Positions 296-32,590 of a DNA stretch of 32,590 nt are shown here, in pieces. Source of the stretch: a virus (taxonomy: Duplodnaviria; Caudoviricetes); IMG/VR virus record IMGVR_UViG_3300020043_001384, positions 1 to 32,590 of that record; one strand, given 5' to 3'. The translations under genes were made by a program, and so were the position numbers. Position 1 is the first letter of the stretch, and every line of letters begins with the position of its first letter. The notes under the pieces are model-generated. The model was not told the DNA's origin. It ran no database searches and saw only the letters and a list, made by a program, of their open reading frames with translations.

Positions 296-550
296 ATAGG
301 ATTCCGGAATAACATAGGGGAAATTCCTAATTAACATTACTTTATTACAGAATATTTCAGCTTTTAACCTTACTTTCTTACAATTTATTACGGCTTAAAC
401 CTTAAAAAATAGGGTTTATCTTTGCTAAGAATGTATACTTAACTATGCAATAGTGTATAAAAAACCACGAAATGTATACTTAAATATGCAAAAGCATATA
501 AAACAGACATAATGCTAAATATTATATGCAAAATCGTATAAAAAAAGGAG
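296..550. repeat. Non-coding array of three families of imperfect tandem repeats
   Basis: A: atagg..attcc..taacat x2 (296-337). B: tatt.c.gctt..aacctta x2 (353-372, 386-404). C: three ~40-nt units starting aatg with TATGCA and TATAAAA in register (430, 471, 511). Confidence 0.75.
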
Positions 551-564
551 GCTTTTACACCTCC
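540..564 (-). terminator. Rho-independent terminator at end of late/lysis operon
   Basis: Minus strand GGAGGT-gtaaaa-GCCTCC followed by T7. Confidence 0.85.
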
Positions 565-598
565 CTCTTAACCTAACTATGAAAAACAAGACATTTAA
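540..598 (-). ncRNA. Putative ~55-nt small RNA antisense to early-gene start regions
   Basis: TATATTTG -7 box at 604-611, terminator at 540-564, body CUUGUUUUUCAUAGUUA complementary to AACTATGAAAA(G)CAAG at starts 31982 and 25978. Confidence 0.45.
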
Positions 599-611
599 CT
601 TGTCAAATATA

Positions 612-1391
612 CTAATTTATTCCTGCTTTCGATTTGAATTTCAGAAATTCTTGGTAAGTTTTATTGTTAATCTGCCACTGCTTACCGCAACCTTTACGAT
701 CTGAACACTGCATTCTGTGTTGAATTGTTCCGTGTGCAGTAACTCTCATTTGTTTGTAGTTGCCTAGTCGTGAGCATTCAGGACAACAGAATTTCTCTTC
801 GCCAGTTAAAACAGCGTAGTTAACTTTTGCTTTAGTGTATGGGTTTAACTTCTGATGAACGGCCTTTAATACCTTAACATCCATTTCGCAGTATTCAACC
901 ATTTGTTTAAGTGAATCTTCACACTTCTCTAGGCAAACTTTCTTCCATAAATCCAACCCAGTAGGCAGCTTTGCACCTACACCTAGAAACTTTGCAATAT
1001 AGTCTAGTTTATTAGAGTTGAAATAGAAGCCACTTTTAGCTAGTTTAAGCGTGTCAATAGTATCATATGAATGATTCATTTGTACACCGTGGTATAAAGC
1101 ACGGGTGCGCAACCATTTGAGGTCGAACCTATCTCCGTTATGGAATACAAGTTCCGTCGCTTTGTTCATCTCTTTTACGAACTTCTTGATTAGCTTCTTG
1201 TCGCAGCGGTTTTTGTCCCACGTTAAAGAGTGCGATTCATCTGAGCCTTCCCACTCCCAAGACACGCAAATAATAGCACGCTCTTGTATAATGCTTTCAG
1301 GCGTTACCGTCATATTGAAACCTGACCTCCAAAATATTCCTATGTTCGGAGAAGTTTCAATGTCTAGGTAGAGTCGTTTTCTTGTTATCAT
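612..1391 (-). CDS. DnaQ/RNase H-like (YprB-type) 3'-5' exonuclease with C-terminal Zn ribbon
   Basis: LYLDIET, HNGDRFD, YCEMDV DEDD motifs; CPEC...C..C C-terminus. Confidence 0.85.
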   Translation of the reverse strand: MITRKRLYLDIETSPNIGIFWRSGFNMTVTPESIIQERAIICVSWEWEGSDESHSLTWDKNRCDKKLIKKFVKEMNKATELVFHNGDRFDLKWLRTRALYHGVQMNHSYDTIDTLKLAKSGFYFNSNKLDYIAKFLGVGAKLPTGLDLWKKVCLEKCEDSLKQMVEYCEMDVKVLKAVHQKLNPYTKAKVNYAVLTGEEKFCCPECSRLGNYKQMRVTAHGTIQHRMQCSDRKGCGKQWQINNKTYQEFLKFKSKAGIN

Positions 1392-10133: not shown

Positions 10134-10691
10134 ATGGTAAATATTGCAGGGTATGATATACCAAATGAACCGCACGAATTGACCGTTGAGCAGTTCGATA
10201 AGATTAACTTTATCACATCTAACCAGGAACTAGATGAGATAGAAAAGTGGATAGAGAAATTCAAGTACTTAGGAGTAGACGAATCCGTGTTTGATGATAT
10301 GCAAATGGAAGAATTTTACCAACTTATCGCAGACTGGAATGATCAACCGCCACACCCTAAAGACAAAGTGCTTAACATAGAGATAGAAGGCTATACTTAC
10401 GAGGCTAAAGAGTCTATAGGAGTTCGTGACTTAGGAATGATAGAGAAAGTGTGGAAACAGAATAACGGAAACTTCGCAGCTGAGACGTTGGCAATTATCT
10501 ATAAGCGTGCTGACCTTAGTAAAACAGAACACTACGCACCCGCTCACATTAAACATAAAACAGCTTTGTTTAAGAAACAACCTTCATCGCTAGTGATTCC
10601 GTTTATCATCGAAGTACTTGAGAAGCTAACCAAAACAACACAACAGATTAAAGATGCAGTTACCGAAGAACTGGAACAGCCTAACAACTAG
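10134..10691 (+). CDS. Hypothetical protein, possible tail assembly chaperone
   Basis: 185 aa acidic ORF with A-rich start region; IPNEPHELTVEQF resembles N-terminus of next ORF. Confidence 0.6.
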   Translation: MVNIAGYDIPNEPHELTVEQFDKINFITSNQELDEIEKWIEKFKYLGVDESVFDDMQMEEFYQLIADWNDQPPHPKDKVLNIEIEGYTYEAKESIGVRDLGMIEKVWKQNNGNFAAETLAIIYKRADLSKTEHYAPAHIKHKTALFKKQPSSLVIPFIIEVLEKLTKTTQQIKDAVTEELEQPNN

Positions 10692-11382
10692 TCAATTTAT
10701 TGAGTTGAAAGCATTGAAAGAAGAGGACTTTGGTTCTCTTTTTTTATATAACATTGAGGTGCTTAGTATCGTAACAGATACCGACCCCGAAGAACTAGAA
10801 GACCTAGAGCCTGAAGAGTTGGTAGATTACATCTATCAATTAAACTTTCTGAGAAGAGAACCGTCAAAGTCAGCAACCGAAAAGATAAACGATTTACATT
10901 TTAAGCCGTTCATCCTTTTGAAGCTAGGCGAGTTCATAGATTTAGAGTATTATTTCTCTAACGACTTTGTCACAAATTTAACCAATATTTGTGCTTTATG
11001 TTATAGGAAAAAGTCAGTTAATGAATGGGGAGTAGAGACGTTTGAGCCTTATGTTTTTAATCCCTCTGATCGTGCTGACCTATTCGAACACGAAACCATA
11101 ACCAAAACCTACGGAGTAATTCCCGAGTATCTTAAATTCAGAGGTGAGTTAATGCAGTCTTACGAAAATCTATTTATGCCTGACGTTGATGAGTCCGGTG
11201 AAGACCTAGACCCCGAAGACTTGAAAGAAGAACAAGAAGAACAGAGATTTAAAAAGTGGGGTTGGGAAAAGGTTATTTATGACTTGGCAGGCGAAGACAT
11301 AACAAAGGCAGACCAAATAACTGACCTGCCTCTTATAATGGTACTCAACTTTATGAGTATGAAGTATGAGTTAAAAGTTTAA
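10654..11382 (+). CDS. Hypothetical protein, paralog-like of upstream gene, possible tail assembly chaperone
   Basis: 242 aa; LPKNWNSLTTSQF, LGEFIDLE, KWGW..IY.LA motifs. Confidence 0.6.
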   Translation: MQLPKNWNSLTTSQFIELKALKEEDFGSLFLYNIEVLSIVTDTDPEELEDLEPEELVDYIYQLNFLRREPSKSATEKINDLHFKPFILLKLGEFIDLEYYFSNDFVTNLTNICALCYRKKSVNEWGVETFEPYVFNPSDRADLFEHETITKTYGVIPEYLKFRGELMQSYENLFMPDVDESGEDLDPEDLKEEQEEQRFKKWGWEKVIYDLAGEDITKADQITDLPLIMVLNFMSMKYELKV

Positions 11383-24351: not shown

Positions 24352-24443
24352 TCATTTGGATTTAAGCGTTCAAAGTTACAACCTCTATAAGCCCAACTTA
24401 GCAGCCAGTCTTTAGCCTTGAATCGACGTAGGACTGACCGCAT
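24348..24443 (-). CDS. Possible 31-aa ORF (not in ORF track)
   Basis: MRSVLRRFKAKDWLLSWAYRGCNFERLNPNE; stop overlaps next start as ATGA. Confidence 0.35.
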   Translation of the reverse strand: MRSVLRRFKAKDWLLSWAYRGCNFERLNPNE

Positions 24444-24465
24444 ATCTGTTGGTTTGTGCCGTGTT

Positions 24466-24732
24466 TTAGAATGGTAGGTCATTCTCAACTTTTTCAGGTT
24501 TAGCTTCAGGCTTCTCAACGAACTCAGCTTTAACGATCTTTCCGTCAGTCCAAGTAACCTTGCCGTTACCTACATAGACCTTCTTCGCTTTTGCTTCTCG
24601 CTCTTCTTTAGTCTGTGCAATCCATACAGAGGTATTGTTACCCCAGTCGTCTTGCTTGTCGTTAATACTCATTGTGTACTTATCGTACCCACCTTGTGCA
24701 TTCTTGATACTAAAATTGATTAGTGAACTCAT
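24466..24732 (-). CDS. Putative single-stranded DNA-binding protein
   Basis: 88 aa, D.WGN, QTKEERE, YVGNGK, acidic NDLPF tail; in recombination module. Confidence 0.7.
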   Translation of the reverse strand: MSSLINFSIKNAQGGYDKYTMSINDKQDDWGNNTSVWIAQTKEEREAKAKKVYVGNGKVTWTDGKIVKAEFVEKPEAKPEKVENDLPF

Positions 24733-25427
24733 AATTTTGATTTTAATTCGTTATAATACTCTCTACAAATATACACTTTTTCCTTGATTTTTTCTATTAT
24801 TGCTTCGTCTTTTTCTATCAAGAAAGCCTTTACTCTGTTCTTCTTTTCGATGCGGTCAATGTTATGTACAGCTAAAACTTCTTCCCAAGCGTAAGACTCC
24901 TTTTCTAAAGAATCCATATCAGTGAACTGAGGGTCTGTATCTAGTTTCCAAATTAACCTCCTGACTTCGTCGTTTAGAATCACGTCAGGTGTATTGGTCA
25001 AACAATAAGCAAGGATAGCGTTATCGACTCCAGTTAACCACATATAGCCTTGCAGTTGATAAAGGTAGTCCTTGTTTGGGATCTCGCTTTGAAAAAACGG
25101 AAACGTATTCGCAGAGTAACTTGACTTCACATCTAACACAAACTTTGAAGTAACTACATCCGGTGTTCCTTTGATAAATTCGTTTTCGAAATATTCTTCG
25201 TTCTTAACTATAAACTCAAGGTCTAATACATCGGCTGCAAGTTGAATAGATTCATCTTCTACCATATTCCCTTTATCTGTGTACCGGGATGTAAAGTCCT
25301 TTCTTATTCCGTAAACATCTTCAAGTACTAACTCTTCAATGTAACTCTTAGCAGTCTGTGAAAGAACCTCGCTTTTTGAACGAGGCTCTGTTAAGATTTT
25401 TCCTAATGCTGAACATCTTATCTTCAT
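24729..25427 (-). CDS. YqaJ/lambda-exo-like exonuclease
   Basis: IRCS, GTPD, DVKSS (PD-D/ExK), YQLQGYMWL. Confidence 0.85.
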   Translation of the reverse strand: MKIRCSALGKILTEPRSKSEVLSQTAKSYIEELVLEDVYGIRKDFTSRYTDKGNMVEDESIQLAADVLDLEFIVKNEEYFENEFIKGTPDVVTSKFVLDVKSSYSANTFPFFQSEIPNKDYLYQLQGYMWLTGVDNAILAYCLTNTPDVILNDEVRRLIWKLDTDPQFTDMDSLEKESYAWEEVLAVHNIDRIEKKNRVKAFLIEKDEAIIEKIKEKVYICREYYNELKSKL

Positions 25428-25978
25428 AGTAAAGCAATTACTGATTTCTGTACTTCTGTTAATTCATATCCTTGTAAAGCCTTCTTGAAAGCCTCAGCAG
25501 TTAGTTCTCCTTTCTCTATCTTGGCAAGACCGTTTTCGAATCTGTCTTGAGGGAAAGATGGCTTCGTGTTTTTGACAGCTACTGAAGCTGTCTGTGCATC
25601 GTCATCTTCGGTCTGAAGACATAGTAAAGACTGAAGCGTGTAACGTCTGTAGTAAGTGATAGCTGAACCGATCTTCTGAGGGTCTTGGATAGCAGGTAAC
25701 TGCATTGAACTGGAGATGCTTTCTCCTGACTCCGCATCCATAATAACCGTAGATACATAGCCGTCAACGATAGGTTGCATCATTAAGAGCCCGTGTTCAA
25801 GTAGGATAGGCTCAACTTCCTTCGTCAGAGCGTTAATGTCTGCGTAGTTGTTTTTAAAGTGTGGGTTCTTTGCGTTCTTAGATACCGCACCGATCTGTTG
25901 CTTTGCTCTCCATAGTTTAAACCATAGGGTCTGAGGCTTTGGAATAGCGTCTTCGAATGAATTTTCTTGCTTTTTCAT
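25424..25978 (-). CDS. erf: ERF-family ssDNA annealing protein
   Basis: KNPHFKNNYA, GSAITYYRRY, EDDDA signature. Confidence 0.9.
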   Translation of the reverse strand: MKKQENSFEDAIPKPQTLWFKLWRAKQQIGAVSKNAKNPHFKNNYADINALTKEVEPILLEHGLLMMQPIVDGYVSTVIMDAESGESISSSMQLPAIQDPQKIGSAITYYRRYTLQSLLCLQTEDDDAQTASVAVKNTKPSFPQDRFENGLAKIEKGELTAEAFKKALQGYELTEVQKSVIALL

Positions 25979-26002
25979 AGTTAATTATTTTAATTGTTTA
26001 AG

Positions 26003-26033
26003 CGAATTTAAGTAATGTTTTTTAATTGGCAAA
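26003..26033 (-). promoter_or_regulatory. Host-type promoter TTTG-N19-TAAATTCG for recombination operon
   Basis: Consensus spacing; shares AATTTTGCCA -33 context with early promoters. Confidence 0.65.
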
Positions 26034-26414
26034 ATTTAATTCGTGTTTTCGTATTTTTTCTTTCAAAGCCTCAAGTAGTTCCTCCTTTTCGTAGGTAGTC
26101 CACTTCTTTGTTGAGTTGGCTTTTATACGTAGTTCATCCATAAATACTTCGCCATATTCTTTAACTAGCCAAAAGGTAAACTCAGTCGGTGTTTTATGTG
26201 CTGAAAAAGACGAACTAAAAGTGTGATGCGCCACACATAAACAAACACCATTACTTTCATCCCATCGAACTGATTTATTTGATCTACTAAATATATGATG
26301 GCTGTTTAGTGTTTTGGTAGTTCCGCACACTTCGCATTTATTCCCTGCTTCTAGTTTTACTAATAACGACCAAGCATCGTCTAGTTTTCCGTCTATTCCT
26401 TTTAGTTTTTTCAT
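26022..26414 (-). CDS. NinG/HNH-like endonuclease
   Basis: CEVCG, HHIFSR, RWD..N..CLC..HH. Confidence 0.8.
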   Translation of the reverse strand: MKKLKGIDGKLDDAWSLLVKLEAGNKCEVCGTTKTLNSHHIFSRSNKSVRWDESNGVCLCVAHHTFSSSFSAHKTPTEFTFWLVKEYGEVFMDELRIKANSTKKWTTYEKEELLEALKEKIRKHELNFAN

Positions 26415-27079
26415 ATCTCGAAATCAAATATAGATGTTTGTCGTTCGTCTTTCTTTCGTATTATACCTAAAGCTGTTTCAAAGATAGTTCTTCCAGCTTC
26501 ATAGTCTACTAGGTTGCGACACATTTTAACCCTATCTTGTTCGCCATTATATTTAGTAAAATCATAATCATGAAACTCTGAAAAAACTTTTACCTTATTC
26601 TTTGCCCTACTCAAATCAGGATTCTTTCTTTCACTAACAACAGTAGGTAAAATAAAGTTTGCCCAGTATAAATGTCTGTTTCTTTGTTGTGCAGGAATTA
26701 ATGGTTCATAATATGGAATTACATTTTCGATAACATATTTCCCCGTATAAAAGGTGTTAAGAAATATAATCTCTTGATACAATTTCATGTCAGGATAAGC
26801 CATTTTTCTAGTTGTTTTCATAGAGTGTTGTATCCTTGAATGTGTTGGACAAGGTGGTGAACTCCAAATAAAATCAAACTCTTTATAATGGTCAAGTAAG
26901 TATTGATGCGCATCTGCAACGATTACAATATCGTTCGGAAACCTTTCTTGGTATAATCTCGCAGCTTCAGGGTCTAATTCAACTGCGGTTACTTCAATTT
27001 CAATTCCTGCTTGTTCTGCTACTTCGTCCCATTTGTAGCGGTTACCTCCTAGACAGGCGTATAAGTTTAATACTTTCAT
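26411..27079 (-). CDS. C5-cytosine DNA methyltransferase (short, orphan)
   Basis: LNLYACLGG (motif I), SSPPC (IV), ENV (VI), R.RH (VIII), RNLV (X). Confidence 0.85.
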   Translation of the reverse strand: MKVLNLYACLGGNRYKWDEVAEQAGIEIEVTAVELDPEAARLYQERFPNDIVIVADAHQYLLDHYKEFDFIWSSPPCPTHSRIQHSMKTTRKMAYPDMKLYQEIIFLNTFYTGKYVIENVIPYYEPLIPAQQRNRHLYWANFILPTVVSERKNPDLSRAKNKVKVFSEFHDYDFTKYNGEQDRVKMCRNLVDYEAGRTIFETALGIIRKKDERQTSIFDFEI

Positions 27080-27282
27080 TCTTCCGTGTTTTTAATTAAT
27101 TCAACTTCTTCTAAATATGTGGGTACATAATCGTACTTTTCAGTCTTAAGAAATGGAGAACCATCTCTATCATCGAAGCCTTGCACCTCGTAAACACCAC
27201 CTACATACAATCCTAAGTGTTCATTATTTGATTTGTTCAATCCTTGATGTTTTACAAATCTTACTTTGTCTCCTGTCTTCAT
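27076..27282 (-). CDS. Hypothetical SH3/KOW-like small protein
   Basis: MKTGDKVRF...EVEL pattern; ATGA overlaps. Confidence 0.6.
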   Translation of the reverse strand: MKTGDKVRFVKHQGLNKSNNEHLGLYVGGVYEVQGFDDRDGSPFLKTEKYDYVPTYLEEVELIKNTEE

Positions 27283-27527
27283 TCTAACATCTTTTTATAT
27301 TCATTCAACTCTAAATTTTCTTCGTGCATCTTCCACAATTTACGCATTAATTCTTCATTTTCTGCTTTTAGTTCTTTTAAAGTCTCCTTGACTTGGTCTA
27401 GATCGCAGACTATCTGTTTTAATCCGTCTTTTTGTTGTTCGCTTTCACTCTTCTTTAACCGGAATAACATCTTATTTGCTGTTAAGTCAAGGTTGATTAG
27501 TGAGGTTGTGTATCTTGTTAAGTCCAT
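27279..27527 (-). CDS. Hypothetical coiled-coil protein
   Basis: 82 aa heptad-rich, follows helicase. Confidence 0.6.
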   Translation of the reverse strand: MDLTRYTTSLINLDLTANKMLFRLKKSESEQQKDGLKQIVCDLDQVKETLKELKAENEELMRKLWKMHEENLELNEYKKMLE

Positions 27528-27535
27528 AAAGTTAA

Positions 27536-28531
27536 TTAAAAAGGTAATCCATCGTCAAAATTATTATTAGGTTCTAGTGGTTTGTAAAACTCCTGCAATT
27601 CATTCGGTAGAATATTCCGTGTTTTCATCTCTCCTTTCGGTGCTGCATAAAGTTTATTATGTTGGTTTGGTGCAACTACATCAATGTCGTAATAGGTCAA
27701 AGTGTTTATATCGAAGTGTAGTTCACATTTTCCTATTTTACCAATCGAACGGGGCTTTATTTTGTTGAAGTGGATCTCTACCATATTGTGCATTACGTCA
27801 GGTCGATGAATAGTAATCATTGATTTTCCACTATTAAACCACTCCGAACCACCTTTTAAATCGTAAGGTGTAGGAACAGACCTTTGACCGTTTACTTTCT
27901 CTGTCAGTTTAGGGTGTATGATCGTGTGAAGATGTAGATTATTCTCCTCTGCTATATGGTTTCTATAAGGCAAACAATATTCCAAGTAAGTTGCATAACC
28001 TCCGTAAGTGTCGTAAGGATGGCTCAAGTCTTTCCAGCTATCAATCGAAGCTGTGTGAAGTCCTTCCGTCTTTTTGATGTGTGCTGCCATATCCCAAAAA
28101 TCCATTGGAGTCATCTTCGCTTTAACATCTACCTTAGTAAGCACCTTGAAATGTTTTGTAACCCATTCAATCTCCTTTTCAATATCTGCATCTGTGATCG
28201 TGTTAGGTTTTTTAGGGTCGAAAGATTTGCTCGTCTTCTTATGGATAAAGTCTGCAAGTATCTCAACATTGTTACCAACGTCAGGAAAGTAAATTAAGTG
28301 CTTCCATCCGTATAATACAGAAGTATTCATTAACAACTCCATCAACACTTGAGTCTTACCACTCATTGGAAATCCTGTCCAATCCGTACAACCTCCTAAC
28401 TGCATAGAATAATACTCATCTATCTTTTCAAATCCAAGATAAACCCCTCTTTCGTGGTAGTTATCCCTATACTCTTTTAGTTGTTTAAGAACGTCGCTAG
28501 GCTCCGTTACTTTAAATCCATTTAATCCCAC
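27536..28531 (-). CDS. DnaB/T7 gp4-like SF4 replicative helicase
   Basis: TGFPMSGKT Walker A, SIDSW, HP.K, YDLKGGS, KIKP..IG.IG. Confidence 0.8.
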   Translation of the reverse strand: MGLNGFKVTEPSDVLKQLKEYRDNYHERGVYLGFEKIDEYYSMQLGGCTDWTGFPMSGKTQVLMELLMNTSVLYGWKHLIYFPDVGNNVEILADFIHKKTSKSFDPKKPNTITDADIEKEIEWVTKHFKVLTKVDVKAKMTPMDFWDMAAHIKKTEGLHTASIDSWKDLSHPYDTYGGYATYLEYCLPYRNHIAEENNLHLHTIIHPKLTEKVNGQRSVPTPYDLKGGSEWFNSGKSMITIHRPDVMHNMVEIHFNKIKPRSIGKIGKCELHFDINTLTYYDIDVVAPNQHNKLYAAPKGEMKTRNILPNELQEFYKPLEPNNNFDDGLPF

Positions 28532-29253
28532 GGTGCTTTATATTTAGTCGGTTCATCTACTTGGTTTAAATATCTCTGAAAATTATCATTAGGTAAGAAG
28601 TGAGATGGTGCTATCATCTTGTTATCTAGTACCCATTGATTCTTACACATCATCTTGAATGCGTGTTCCCATTCGTGTGAGTGATATTTAAGTTTCTTAA
28701 GTTTCTTCAAATTATTCTTATCTGTATCTGATATAACCTTGAACTTACCTTCTATACCATTGTATTTAAGTTTCATTTGATTAAACCAAGTTAAGAAGCC
28801 ATCCACATCAATTTTCTCATCCTTTTTAGTATTAGAATCTTCTTCTTGTTCTTCTTCTTCTTCTTTTTCTTCTTGCGATAGAGTATCCATACTGTATATA
28901 TACTCTATCAATACTCTATTTTTCACTAGTTTAAGTTCTGATTCTATGCACTTTACAACTTTTGGGCTTGTAGAGTAGTTATATTTAGCCCAGTTCTTTA
29001 TTGCTATCTCATTTGTAGACTCAGAGAATCGAATTTTACCGAGTGAGGTGAAGTGTGATATTAGTTTATTCACCTTGTCTGAACTTATGTTTAAATCAAA
29101 AGCAATATGCTTCTTGCTTATCTCATAAATACCACATTGTTTAGTTCGTTCGTTTGTAAGTAGGTATAGATAAAACATCTTCTTATCACTATCCAATTCA
29201 CTAAAGAACGGATCAGACCAAATCTGTGTATGTACTTTTCTAAAAACTGCCAT
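28522..29253 (-). CDS. Replication initiator (wHTH, DnaD/replisome organiser-like)
   Basis: WSDPFF.EL, YLYLLTN, CGIYEI, NW.KYN N-terminus; acidic linker; F..YLNQ C-terminus; upstream of helicase. Confidence 0.8.
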   Translation of the reverse strand: MAVFRKVHTQIWSDPFFSELDSDKKMFYLYLLTNERTKQCGIYEISKKHIAFDLNISSDKVNKLISHFTSLGKIRFSESTNEIAIKNWAKYNYSTSPKVVKCIESELKLVKNRVLIEYIYSMDTLSQEEKEEEEEQEEDSNTKKDEKIDVDGFLTWFNQMKLKYNGIEGKFKVISDTDKNNLKKLKKLKYHSHEWEHAFKMMCKNQWVLDNKMIAPSHFLPNDNFQRYLNQVDEPTKYKAPWD

Positions 29254-29254
29254 A

Positions 29255-29461
29255 TCAATCCATTTGTGAGATTTGTTTCCTCAATTCCTTTGAAAACTTG
29301 ATAGCAGTAGATTTATCAAGAACAATAAACGCTTTTGGATAACCAAGACCTTCCTCAATGATAATTGATAATTCACCTCCAGCATTGTGAAAACACTCTA
29401 TCGTGTTTCCATCTGTTTCTGATTCTACACTTCCGCAGAACAATAATTTGACACTTGCCAT
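29255..29461 (-). CDS. Hypothetical protein
   Basis: 68 aa, LDKSTAIKFSKELR motif; between structured RNA and initiator. Confidence 0.65.
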   Translation of the reverse strand: MASVKLLFCGSVESETDGNTIECFHNAGGELSIIIEEGLGYPKAFIVLDKSTAIKFSKELRKQISQMD

Positions 29462-29502
29462 AACTTTATAAGCGTTTTAGGTCAACACATAACCTTTAAA
29501 TG

Positions 29503-29592
29503 AAAAACCCCATCTATCCACAAGGCTCCGACCTCTTGCTTCAAGACAGGGTTAATATAAATTCCTGTGGTTCTATTATGTCGGAGCGAACC
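29503..29592 (-). ncRNA. Structured RNA: two hairpins with complementary loops (kissing loop), terminator-like 3' end
   Basis: P1 GGUUC/GAACC with loop GCUCCGAC; P2 AACCCUGUCU/AGAUGGGGUU with inner CAAG/CUUG and loop GUCGGAGC; U-tract; TATATTTG box at 29599-29606. Confidence 0.7.
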
Positions 29593-29615
29593 TATACACA
29601 AATATAACGAGAATA

Positions 29616-29852
29616 TCAAGCCTTTCGTTGCATCTGTTCTGTTAATTTTCTGTTAAAAAACGAAGTAACGCTATCTAGTTTCGAATCGTTCCAGTCTTCG
29701 TCAAAGCTGATTAGTTGCATATCGTTGTACGGTGTTTTATGTTCCTGCTTCCACGCTTTTAGTTTCTCTGCTTTCTCTTGTTCGTCTTTATAACCTAGCT
29801 GAGAAGAGCAGTATCTTCCGTTGATAGTGAATACTATTTTAATCCATTTCAT
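29616..29852 (-). CDS. Hypothetical protein
   Basis: 78 aa, ATGA overlap. Confidence 0.6.
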   Translation of the reverse strand: MKWIKIVFTINGRYCSSQLGYKDEQEKAEKLKAWKQEHKTPYNDMQLISFDEDWNDSKLDSVTSFFNRKLTEQMQRKA

Positions 29853-30208
29853 TCGTTCGTGTTTTTGTCGTAAATGTTTCCTTTTATTTCAATTAACTCT
29901 TCAATGTAGTTCAAAGGATCATCACATTCGTTATCATTCCAAGCTGTAAACTCTCTCCACTCATACTTAACATCTGATTCAATATGGTTAACTTTAACAA
30001 TATCGCCCTCAAAAATTCTTGAACCTTCATTGTCAAACAACCCTGTGAACTGACCTATCGTATTACTATCAACATCGAACTGATTTCCTTTCCAATCAAC
30101 TATTAAGATTATTTGTGGTTTGTCTGGTACGAAGTATCTTAATAAACTACCTTCAACCCAATTACCATTATCAACTCTTTTTGCTCTAAATAAAATATCT
30201 CTTTTCAT
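29849..30208 (-). CDS. YopX-family protein
   Basis: ILFRAK, WVEG, GQFTGL.D..G..IFEGDIV, GNIYD. Confidence 0.9.
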   Translation of the reverse strand: MKRDILFRAKRVDNGNWVEGSLLRYFVPDKPQIILIVDWKGNQFDVDSNTIGQFTGLFDNEGSRIFEGDIVKVNHIESDVKYEWREFTAWNDNECDDPLNYIEELIEIKGNIYDKNTNE

Positions 30209-30435
30209 TGTAACGCTTTTATCAGGTTCTTAATTCTTTCTATTGTTACTTCTCCTTTGAGTTCGATAGATGCTGTGTAACCGGATTCATAAATTTCTAG
30301 TGCTACCATCTTTCCGTAGTCTGAAAATATTACATTCAAGGCACAGTTGTCTAGTTCATAAAGCCACTGCTCTGCATCGTGGTACTTGTCATCCAGTACA
30401 AATCCTAGTTCTGAAATTTCTTTTGTTGTTATCAT
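30205..30435 (-). CDS. Hypothetical protein
   Basis: 76 aa, ELGF motif, overlapping neighbours. Confidence 0.6.
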   Translation of the reverse strand: MITTKEISELGFVLDDKYHDAEQWLYELDNCALNVIFSDYGKMVALEIYESGYTASIELKGEVTIERIKNLIKALQ

Positions 30436-30800
30436 AGTTTTTCTGTAAGTTTAAAATCAATTAATCTCCTTAAATATACTTCTCCGTCTTTCACATCTTT
30501 TCCAACCGTCTTTGGATAGAGTCCGTCATTTATCCACCGCATCCAATTTTCAAACACTCTGCTATCTACATCGTTGTTTTCTCGCTTCAGAAAGTGAATA
30601 ATAGTGTCGTGCCTTTCCTTGTTTCCGTAAATAATCTTTGCAATCTCCTGAATTGTTAGACCGCTTTCTTTTAAGTAGTGACAAGCACACACCTTCATAT
30701 CAACATAGAACCTGCCTCTGTATTTCTTTTTAAAGTAGTTCTTCATCATATCACTGGTTGGTAAAAGCGTTCTGTTTATATATGCCTCAATCTCTGTCAT
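30432..30800 (-). CDS. HTH protein resembling DnaA C-terminal DNA-binding domain
   Basis: GLTIQEIAKII...RHDTIIH resembles DnaA domain IV signature (RDHTTV.H). Confidence 0.55.
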   Translation of the reverse strand: MTEIEAYINRTLLPTSDMMKNYFKKKYRGRFYVDMKVCACHYLKESGLTIQEIAKIIYGNKERHDTIIHFLKRENNDVDSRVFENWMRWINDGLYPKTVGKDVKDGEVYLRRLIDFKLTEKL

Positions 30801-31179
30801 ATTCTTGTTTTAATCGTTCAATGTAAAGTGTGGCATCCATCAACTCTTCCTGTAAGTGTGTAAGCCATTGTAAGGTGTTTAAATCGTTTCGTTCTAGCGT
30901 TGTGTTGTACTTCTCTATTCCTGCTTCTGATCGTTGTTTAAATCGGCTTAAAACGCTTTCGACTATTGAGTCCGTGTTTTCGTTGACTTGCTCTGTAAGT
31001 ATTTCAAGTTGGCAAGTAGGAATTATCCAAGTAAGCCCTATGTCATCAGTGATCTGAAAACTACCATCTCGCTCGTCTGATATTATAGTTCCCTCTAAAC
31101 AAAACATTGACGGGAAAAATGTAAGCCCGCGAACAACACCGCTCCACGGAACAACTTTTACTCTAGTTCCTTTTCTCAT
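30787..31179 (-). CDS. SH3-like N-terminus fused to MazG-like/all-alpha NTP-PPase-like domain
   Basis: RS..GI.KY.TTL, WL.HLQEELMDA.LY motif. Confidence 0.55.
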   Translation of the reverse strand: MRKGTRVKVVPWSGVVRGLTFFPSMFCLEGTIISDERDGSFQITDDIGLTWIIPTCQLEILTEQVNENTDSIVESVLSRFKQRSEAGIEKYNTTLERNDLNTLQWLTHLQEELMDATLYIERLKQEYDRD

Positions 31180-31400
31180 AACTGATTTAATTTAATCTCC
31201 CTGATTCGTTGCATCCGGTCAAGGTCGTAGTTAGTAAAAAATTGCTTTCTCTTTGCATCGTCAATCGCTAGATTAGGGCGATACTCGTTTTCTGTCTCCG
31301 TCTTTGTGACGTTTTGGTTTAGCTTTTCAACTGCTTTACTATACCAGTCTATGCATCCTTTTATCATAATAGTTCTATTTCTTTTTTTACTTGCCTCCAA
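31176..31400 (-). CDS. Hypothetical protein
   Basis: ORF in early cluster; true start may be the ATG at 31367. Confidence 0.55.
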   Translation of the reverse strand: MEASKKRNRTIMIKGCIDWYSKAVEKLNQNVTKTETENEYRPNLAIDDAKRKQFFTNYDLDRMQRIREIKLNQL

Positions 31401-31558
31401 TATTCAGTCTTGTAATTTGAAAATCTCTCTAGCATATCAATCATTTCACTGACCGCAATTAATGCACAATTCTTTGCCTTTGCGTGTCTATTTTCTGTAT
31501 CAATAACCTCGTCAAAGTACTTGCTAACAAGGTGTTCTGCTTTTTCTTTAGGTGTCAT
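31364..31558 (-). CDS. Hypothetical protein (MTPKEKA family)
   Basis: MTPKEKA..L, AK.CALIAV.E, YW..VK.EI; paralog at 31995-32234. Confidence 0.7.
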   Translation of the reverse strand: MTPKEKAEHLVSKYFDEVIDTENRHAKAKNCALIAVSEMIDMLERFSNYKTEYWRQVKKEIELL

Positions 31559-31740
31559 TTGAATAAGATTTTATGTAACAAATTAAGGTTTACTTCGTAC
31601 TTCTCAGATAGGTATCTTACCATCTCTTCGCTCATTTCGTTTCTAGGCACGAAGTCGTGATCTCTAGTTACGTCGAACATCGCTCTAACGTGGGAGCAGA
31701 TTCTTTCTACTTTGTCGCAGTATGTTTCCGTTCTCTTCAT
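31555..31740 (-). CDS. Hypothetical protein
   Basis: 61 aa, ATGA overlaps. Confidence 0.6.
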   Translation of the reverse strand: MKRTETYCDKVERICSHVRAMFDVTRDHDFVPRNEMSEEMVRYLSEKYEVNLNLLHKILFK

Positions 31741-31982
31741 TTCGTTTCGATTATTTGCATTAATACTTTGAGGTGTGAGTACATTATCCGGTCTCTACCT
31801 CTTACACTCATCTCAATAGATTTTTCAGTATGAGGTTTAAATCCGTGAGGTTCTGCAATCTCTGCATTATACTTTAATTTTGTATCAATGCGACGTTGCA
31901 TTCTCTCCGCAGCTTCTAAAAGTGCTAAGGCTCTTTCGTGTAGCCTTTTCATTTCTTTGATTTCGTTAATTCTTGTTTTCAT
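31737..31982 (-). CDS. Hypothetical early protein
   Basis: 81 aa, strong A-rich start region; 5' end duplicated at 113-168. Confidence 0.65.
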   Translation of the reverse strand: MKTRINEIKEMKRLHERALALLEAAERMQRRIDTKLKYNAEIAEPHGFKPHTEKSIEMSVRGRDRIMYSHLKVLMQIIETK

Positions 31983-31994
31983 AGTTTTTTGTTT

Positions 31995-32234
31995 TTAATT
32001 ATTTTCTCTGTAATAAATTGCTTCCTGTAACATATCATCTAACTCCTGATAAACCTCTCTGTAAAAATTCACATTATCTGCTCTTCCTTCTATAAGTGCC
32101 AACTCAATGTTAACACATATTAACTGGCAGAACTTAATACTTTCAATGTGCTTGTCAACCGAATCAGTGTAACGAAGTTGAATGTAATTACTAACTGAAT
32201 TAATTAGTTTCTCTGCTTTTTCTCTTGCTGTCAT
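31995..32234 (-). CDS. Hypothetical protein (MTAREKA, paralog of 31364-31558)
   Basis: Start revised to ATG 32234 (aaaactATG); 79 aa. Confidence 0.65.
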   Translation of the reverse strand: MTAREKAEKLINSVSNYIQLRYTDSVDKHIESIKFCQLICVNIELALIEGRADNVNFYREVYQELDDMLQEAIYYRENN

Positions 32235-32238
32235 AGTT

Positions 32239-32409
32239 TTATTTATTAGGGTAAAGACCACCATTCTCGTAAAACTCTTTAAGTCTTTCAAGGTTTGTAC
32301 CTCTTTCCTGAAGAGTCAATAGTAACTGCTCTAATTCTTCTCTCAACTGAGTAGTGTTAAATGATAAAAGAAGGTCTAGAGTTTCTTGTGTTGTGTTTCC
32401 TGTTTTCAT
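32239..32409 (-). CDS. 56-aa early protein (not in ORF track)
   Basis: MKTGNTTQETLDLLL...GGLYPNK; first ORF after the early promoter, stop 4 nt before next ATG. Confidence 0.65.
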   Translation of the reverse strand: MKTGNTTQETLDLLLSFNTTQLREELEQLLLTLQERGTNLERLKEFYENGGLYPNK

Positions 32410-32437
32410 AATTTCTTGTTTTTCTTATTTGTTTCTG

Positions 32438-32468
32438 TAAAGTAAAGTATAGTTTTTGACGTGGCAAA
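32438..32468 (-). promoter_or_regulatory. Early promoter, homolog of 193-223
   Basis: TTTG-N19-TTACTTTA; shares aaagtaaagta...ttttgacgtggcaaaatttttt with 194-230. Confidence 0.6.
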
Positions 32469-32496
32469 ATTTTTTGGAAACTTTTTTCACATTTTT

Positions 32497-32590
32497 GTTG
32501 AAATAGAAGCCACTTTTAGCTAGTTTAAGCGTGTCAATAGTATCATATGAATGATTCATTTGTACACCGTGGTATAAAGCACGGGTGCGC
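32497..32590 (+). repeat. Exact direct copy of 1017-1110 (inside exonuclease gene); probable chimeric contig end
   Basis: 94-nt identity gttgaaatagaagc...acgggtgcgc. Confidence 0.95.

Follow-up and report, generated by a model that had tools for sequence, protein, structure and literature searches.

Known phage small RNAs mostly control lysogeny or host genes. Within the part of one review that covers them (PMC12197685), none of the phage sRNAs is aimed at recombination and none comes from a Bacteroidota phage. The nearest in logic to the case described here are the c4 RNA of P1 and P7 and the sar RNA of P22, which, according to that part of the review, block translation of one of the phage's own genes at the ribosome-binding site; both target antirepressors in temperate enterobacterial phages, the specificity of c4 varies between relatives, and c4 needs a folded structure. 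The same pages describe PreS (lambda) and VpdS (VP882) as short phage RNAs that act in trans by imperfect pairing, depend on Hfq and bind mainly host RNAs. On the bacterial side, the passages on GibS and FopS of Bacteroides thetaiotaomicron in PMC7366714 and PMC11697453 report repression by pairing across start codons, with FopS targeting the first gene of operons. Initiation in Bacteroidota, in the portion of PMC6847099 that treats it, involves no Shine-Dalgarno pairing and depends on the bases just upstream of the AUG.

Here we analyze a stretch of 32,590 nucleotides, a whole IMG/VR phage record of 32.6 kb (hereafter, the window), for which the original prediction, made from the letters alone, had proposed one small RNA that masks the start codons of several early genes. 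We conclude that a family of uncultured freshwater phages keeps what is likely a tiny RNA gene in a fixed place, that this gene changes in step with the start of erf, and that its product probably blocks erf translation. A literature search, mostly of open-access papers, returned no published account of such an RNA; the FopS paper, in the portion concerned, mentions one Caudovirales phage copy (PMC11697453; Fig. 5a), which may bear on novelty.

The predicted RNA slot and its genome setting

Nearly all window genes lie on the minus strand: those for replication and recombination occupy ~24-32 kb, those for packaging and the virion come at lower coordinates, and a 3'-5' exonuclease gene is last (1391-612). 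Near-identical DNA was found in freshwater, estuary and aquaculture metagenomes, and three metagenome DNA runs carrying it were compared against the window. The best isolate match of Erf is in Nonlabens phage P12024 (47%), where the gap before the erf region shows a promoter only. This match and the promoter type lead us to infer that the host belongs to the Bacteroidota. Among 80 GTDB loci checked, we found no clear prophage of the phage family, the best match (50%) being a phage-sized MAG contig.

A box, a leader and a terminator follow the exonuclease stop on the minus strand, as had been claimed (Table 1). Boxes of the Bacteroidota -7 consensus TAnnTTTG (as given in the part of PMC7366714 on promoters) are not rare by themselves, with 40 found in the window versus 36 expected; the weight of the box at 604-611 therefore comes from its conserved position in relatives. 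No -33 box was seen at the element. The leader is U-rich and folds unpaired, and the fold of the element has an MFE of -14.6 (z ~ -2.1). Our sigma-70 and terminator scan of the window did not list the terminator at 540-569. The UUAGGU(U) motif is missing in several clades other than those aligned; depending on the phage, it either pairs with the erf UTR or forms a loop outside the duplex. The exonuclease gene has its own box-like octamer upstream, at 1421-1414.

Table 1. Coordinates of the predicted RNA element, the erf operon and the predicted target sites in the window
Feature	Position	Strand	Remarks
Consensus Bacteroidota -7 box, predicted sRNA promoter: TATATTTG	604..611	-	1 base past exonuclease stop
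Second -7-like octamer	612..619	-	Overlaps exonuclease stop; sole box in one clade of relatives
Predicted small RNA, ~59 nt	540..598	-	5' end inferred from box
Unpaired seed, complementary to erf start region	574..591	-	Opening cost 0.64 kcal/mol
UUAGGU(U) motif	570..576	-	Invariant in 17/17 aligned copies
Intrinsic terminator	540..569	-	G+C stem 564-547, extendable to 569; seven-U tract 546-540
3'-5' exonuclease gene (RNase_H_2, phrog_403)	612..1391	-	3' end marks the RNA slot
erf, single-strand annealing protein (PF04404)	25424..25978	-	First gene of overlapping erf - exonuclease - ssb-like run
RecE/YqaJ-like exonuclease and 88-aa gene (ssb-like by position only)	24466..25427	-	Each overlaps preceding stop
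-7-like octamer upstream of erf	26003..26010	-	Implies 5' UTR of ~20 nt
Main predicted target site, erf mRNA	25965..25983	-	-5 to +14 around AUG
Possible secondary target, 81-aa early gene start	31971..31986	-	11 contiguous bases, -17.4

Judged from its sequence, the promoter-leader-terminator element is real and conserved. We called elements by a position-based rule, as finders demanding CAU or UUAGGU missed true copies. A terminator lies within 200 nt past the exonuclease stop in 81 of 89 relatives (52/59 and 29/30 in two sets), compared with 81 of 1004 other stops; the 89 were selected by protein only, 59 of them being the unique, usable loci among 79 that have the gene and 30 those among 35. 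The terminator stem occurs in 31 distinct sequences in one set and 21 in the other. Ahead of the hairpin, a strict -7 box is seen in 24/52 and 3/29 relatives (controls 3-4%), and a looser box pattern, picked post hoc after data inspection, in 47/52 and 28/29 (controls 10-13%); in relatives the -7 box often starts on the exonuclease stop codon itself. Eight of the 89 loci gave no terminator call, and some relatives are clearly without the RNA unit. The 86 loci selected by pattern are biased, and we excluded them from these presence counts and retained them among the 54 RNA-erf pairs and 63 leaders described below. The distance from the slot to erf, which is downstream and on the same strand, is 1.4-7.7 kb in relatives.

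Similar layouts occur elsewhere. At one locus without an exonuclease match (L166:1136-1210), a promoter-seed-terminator unit sits directly upstream of erf, and its seed matches that locus's erf start over ~10 bases. Distant phages (L049, L053, L057, L059, L060, L066, L082 and L120) show the box-seed-terminator layout with other seeds, which likely have other targets; the L057 seed has no match by eye to its own erf. Within the window, the intergenic stretch at 29496-29552 has a plus-strand sequence like the RNA element (19/31 in register at 29500) and lies near a -7 box at 29606-29599 (-); it is possibly a second small-RNA-like unit.

The window ends deserve separate description. The first 117 bases reproduce 2356-2472 exactly in inverted orientation, and the last 94 (32497-32590) duplicate 1017-1110, within the exonuclease gene; neither junction is supported by the joints listed from the metagenome runs, and these end repeats are probably assembly chimeras. 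Although the ends look mosaic, the RNA element is spanned by one contig of an independent run (X3, 538-797). Comparison of 113-241 with 31927-32002 and 32439-32487 shows the left end as a strain variant of the early promoter fused to the 81-aa gene, without two small genes and with an identical join in run X7. The genome is probably circular; the RNA element would then directly precede the early promoter, an arrangement also seen in relatives. Just beyond the terminator, 430-543 holds three 33-base repeats at a spacing of 40-41 bases, possibly an origin or protein-binding sites; one unit is swapped in three other runs, and L065, L085 and L091 have a module of similar appearance, located between the RNA and the exonuclease stop. 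At 10134-11382 (+), two ORFs without PHROG or Pfam match run against the genome direction, an orientation we take as real because the 242-aa one is on the minority strand in 15 relatives.

Seed pairing and covariation with the erf start

The erf start (25978) has 13 contiguous bases matching the seed, the top of 896 ATG contexts in the window, the element itself aside. As background, we used 1065 called starts in 22 other phage genomes, where 13 bases occurred once (at a relative's erf), 11 bases 13 times (1.2%), and 8 bases in 122 cases (11%). By these rates, the erf match is beyond chance, the 11-base match at the 81-aa gene (31982) is uncommon, and the 8-base matches at 30435 and 32234, which had been put forward as weaker targets, are background. 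The statement that the structural gene starts then checked do not match fails in one detail: for late-region start 3371, 8 bases match and the hybrid energy is -17.8, and terL and terS reach -17.5. Pairing energies are simple hybrid folds. Pairing at 25965-25983 comprises 18 Watson-Crick pairs and 1 G-U pair (-19.8 kcal/mol), the best of 8 tested after opening cost, and 6 of 535 non-start ATG windows reach the hybrid energy of erf. By raw hybrid energy the recE start (25427) comes first in the window (-21.0); we rejected it as a direct conserved target because of its opening cost (6.9) and the lack of an own-pair advantage.

An RNA that damps many early phage genes and host mRNAs in the manner of FopS, with erf just one of its targets, would be close to what the original prediction described. 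Besides the FopS likeness, it draws on the window itself, where early starts out-pair late ones (median -12.8 vs -9.75, p=0.008; 54 starts, of which one, that of the helicase, was mis-set) and where the top-5 mean was attained by none of 500 shuffled seeds, including when UUUCAU was kept constant. However, in 10 of 17 foreign genomes, too, the window RNA pairs better with early starts than with late ones, and the bias is therefore partly generic; 8-base matches occur at the background rate, and several clades without CAU still keep their erf match. Pairing at the 81-aa start is weak in 5 homologues, and a variant copy at 168 pairs worse (-12.8). On the host side, we counted 10 exact 13-mers versus 6 control matches in 5 Bacteroidota MAGs.

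Specificity was assessed by comparing the pairing of each RNA with its own and with foreign genomes. Among 37 gene families, each present in at least 5 groups, erf was the sole clear outlier (-4.59). The 81-aa family came second (-2.52; 1/120), a result that is not significant over 37 tests and is driven by the window genome. With erf set aside, early starts still have a slight advantage in their own genome (-0.78; 138/40,320), a point for the broad RNA; it is driven by 3 of 8 genomes including that of the window. Among all starts of its own genome, erf was in the top 3 in 14 of 20 genomes and ranked 7th to 14th in 4 of 20. Among terminator leaders, the one at the slot paired best with erf in all 13 genomes where it was called; in the remaining terminator-leader scans, 3 genomes had the same kind of unit on top and 4 were missed by the scan. 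Of the claim that one RNA serves several early genes, erf as a target is supported and the part on the other genes is weakened. We regard a broadly acting RNA as improbable, and secondary early targets in the window genome as possible. In L237 (G016:13075) and L243 (G019:8965), a 146-aa gene inserted right after erf out-pairs it (-23.5 and -24.5), and this gene may be a second RNA target in that clade.

The leader differs from clade to clade, likewise the Erf N-terminus, and the leader pairs best with its own erf start; it is thus not one invariant anti-AUG stretch and tracks its own target. Where Erf starts with Met-Glu, the leader has CC opposite, and where it starts with Met-Lys, UU. Some clades have lost CAU, yet 11-12 bases still pair with erf codons 2-5. 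The sister genomes L149 and L150 carry matched changes on both sides of a 9-12 base UTR arm. Across phages, pairing is centered at -4 to +8 around the AUG.

In 20 genomes forming 8 groups, the true assignment of RNA to erf was the best of 40,320 permutations, with the erf coding part alone at 14/40,320 and the UTR alone at 354/40,320; recE, exo and terL were not significant in this test (3500, 5629 and 1497 of 5040). This first grouping was picked after data inspection. A later test applied a mechanical seed rule to 54 unique RNA-erf pairs: in 18 groups, pairing averaged -17.6 for own versus -11.2 for foreign erf, an own-pair advantage of -6.05 kcal/mol that none of 50,000 permutations equaled, and the controls were null. 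The 7 held-out groups, which were absent from the first set and whose sequences had been viewed before the test, gave an advantage of -3.72 (21/50,000), and permutations within clades gave 654/50,000. Grouping at 75% identity, 4 held-out groups gave 1/24; at 68% identity, 4 groups remain, without a held-out test. With the promoter part trimmed off, which left two seeds at 11 nt (L150 and L157, both retained), the advantage was -5.19 (0/30,000; held-out 86/30,000). The seed of held-out group L316 does not match its own erf (-7.8). Covariation between seed and early-gene starts, suggested as a check with the original prediction, is therefore strongly positive for erf.

The sites might instead be alike at the DNA level, as inverted operator copies or through repeated template switching, without RNA pairing. 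Covariation is strand-symmetric, with a nearly equal own-pair advantage on the opposite strands (-5.04), and pairs are mostly Watson-Crick (385, with 29 G-U), as this explanation would have it; because of this symmetry, covariation does not fix the strand or prove RNA action, both of which rest on the orientation of promoter and terminator. An operator, however, would be expected to keep a fixed motif, whereas here the match shifts register between clades, with bulges and 16-19 base loops, and reaches into codons, and the seed is always unpaired, between promoter box and terminator. We consider a DNA-level origin very unlikely.

Another possibility is a genuine 41-aa gene beginning at the plus-strand ATG at 579, in which case two start regions would simply resemble each other. 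The ORF is present, and in some unrelated phages the motif does begin a real gene, as seen from long ORFs among 43 matches. But CAT is missing in 19 of 63 unique leaders, and in the other 44 the ORF has 1-41 aa (median ~9), antisense of the exonuclease end; it is not conserved in relatives, has no PHROG match, and the terminator points the opposite way. This alternative, raised together with the original prediction, fails, and we give it almost no credence.

As for transcription, one metatranscriptome contains two 151-nt contigs (depth 4, unstranded) that span 550-824; one has its end within the terminator. This is a weak hint from one study. No contigs were found elsewhere on the two stretches compared, including 24400-32590, an absence that is uninformative.

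Proposed repression of the erf operon

We think it likely that a trans-acting phage RNA represses the Erf recombination operon. The element is encoded apart from erf and has imperfect complementarity over the initiation region, as expected of a trans-encoded sRNA. A loose box precedes erf in 18 of 21 genomes (15.5% of other starts), and a strict one in 8 of 21 (7%). Transcription from the -7 box at the exonuclease stop would yield an RNA of ~59 nt, which would arise as well from the exonuclease mRNA, as its 3' end. By pairing through its unpaired leader with the first 3-7 codons, the AUG and the short 5' UTR of erf, this RNA would block erf translation; in Bacteroidota, which have no Shine-Dalgarno sequences, initiation is set by that region. 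Repression would spread from erf to the whole recombination module via translational coupling, which is probable because the next two genes overlap the preceding stops. The RNA would build up during infection and would cap, then shut down, strand-annealing recombination. P22 Erf helps circularize the incoming genome and so is needed early. With a promoter of the host type, the RNA would be produced as soon as infection begins, and a gradually tightening cap would therefore fit better than a switch acting only late; of all steps in this mechanism, timing has the least support.

Pairing could be real and act differently: in cis within a read-through transcript, by stabilizing the erf mRNA, or by excluding co-infecting kin. 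The same-strand position upstream of erf in relatives speaks for this, as does the c4 RNA of P1/P7, which gives phage-specific immunity by matching its own target (PMC12197685, in the part on c4). However, the terminator is 3' of the seed, erf mostly has its own box, AUG covering represses in the tested Bacteroidota cases, and neither an integrase nor a repressor was matched in the window. We judge these modes of action distinctly unlikely, and prefer repression of erf in trans.

A wider picture is offered tentatively, and we are rather doubtful of it as a whole: a large freshwater Bacteroidota phage family may hold a fixed RNA slot, bounded by a promoter at the exonuclease stop and a terminator, whose guide is repeatedly rewritten to track the fast-changing 5' end of the erf mRNA, a lineage-specific recombination off-switch with a possible say in which co-infecting phages recombine with one another. 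For trans-acting sRNAs, such clear co-evolution of seed and target is difficult to demonstrate, and here it names the target without experiment. It also provides many natural compensatory pairs with which to probe pairing rules in Bacteroidota, without Hfq or Shine-Dalgarno sequences. If our reading is true, RNA control of a single-strand annealing protein bears on the tuning of phage mosaicism, and compact repressors for Bacteroidota genetics may be possible.

Comparison with known RNAs

By analogy, the element would work like FopS (Rfam RF04319) and GibS, without being a member of the FopS family. It shares with them an unpaired U-rich 5' seed followed by a terminator, a box of the sigma-ABfr type, and start-codon-spanning binding, predicted here, that is aimed at the first gene of an operon. 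As in FopS, a single-stranded 5' part precedes an intrinsic terminator in the window element; the canonical TAnnTTTG promoter is matched in sequence at 611-604 (predicted). Compared with the conserved R1/R1' seed at the FopS 5' end, the window seed equals consensus positions 2-11 (ten identical bases), a likeness confined to the window copy given the varying seeds of its relatives. The FopS model, however, scores 27.4 bits on the window (589-537) versus a gathering cut-off of 56, and none of 26 genomes exceeds the cut-off (best 28.7). FopS has multiple paralogues per genome, whereas the window record has one match only. We do not assign the element to FopS because both the score and the multicopy tests fail. 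FopS, whose traits include RbpB binding and repression of susC-type host genes, targets host glycan transporters; here, the carriers are freshwater phages with a variable seed that tracks the phage gene erf. Seed variability within the phage family, with CAU lost in some clades, points to convergence, and the FopS likeness of the window copy is probably convergent since both mirror A-rich starts.

Whereas PreS and VpdS act mainly on host RNAs, the target proposed here is phage-encoded, and Bacteroidota are without classical sRNA chaperones. In contrast to c4 and sar, with their antirepressor targets, the RNA here has no structure ahead of its terminator, and the gene it is predicted to hit encodes a recombinase.
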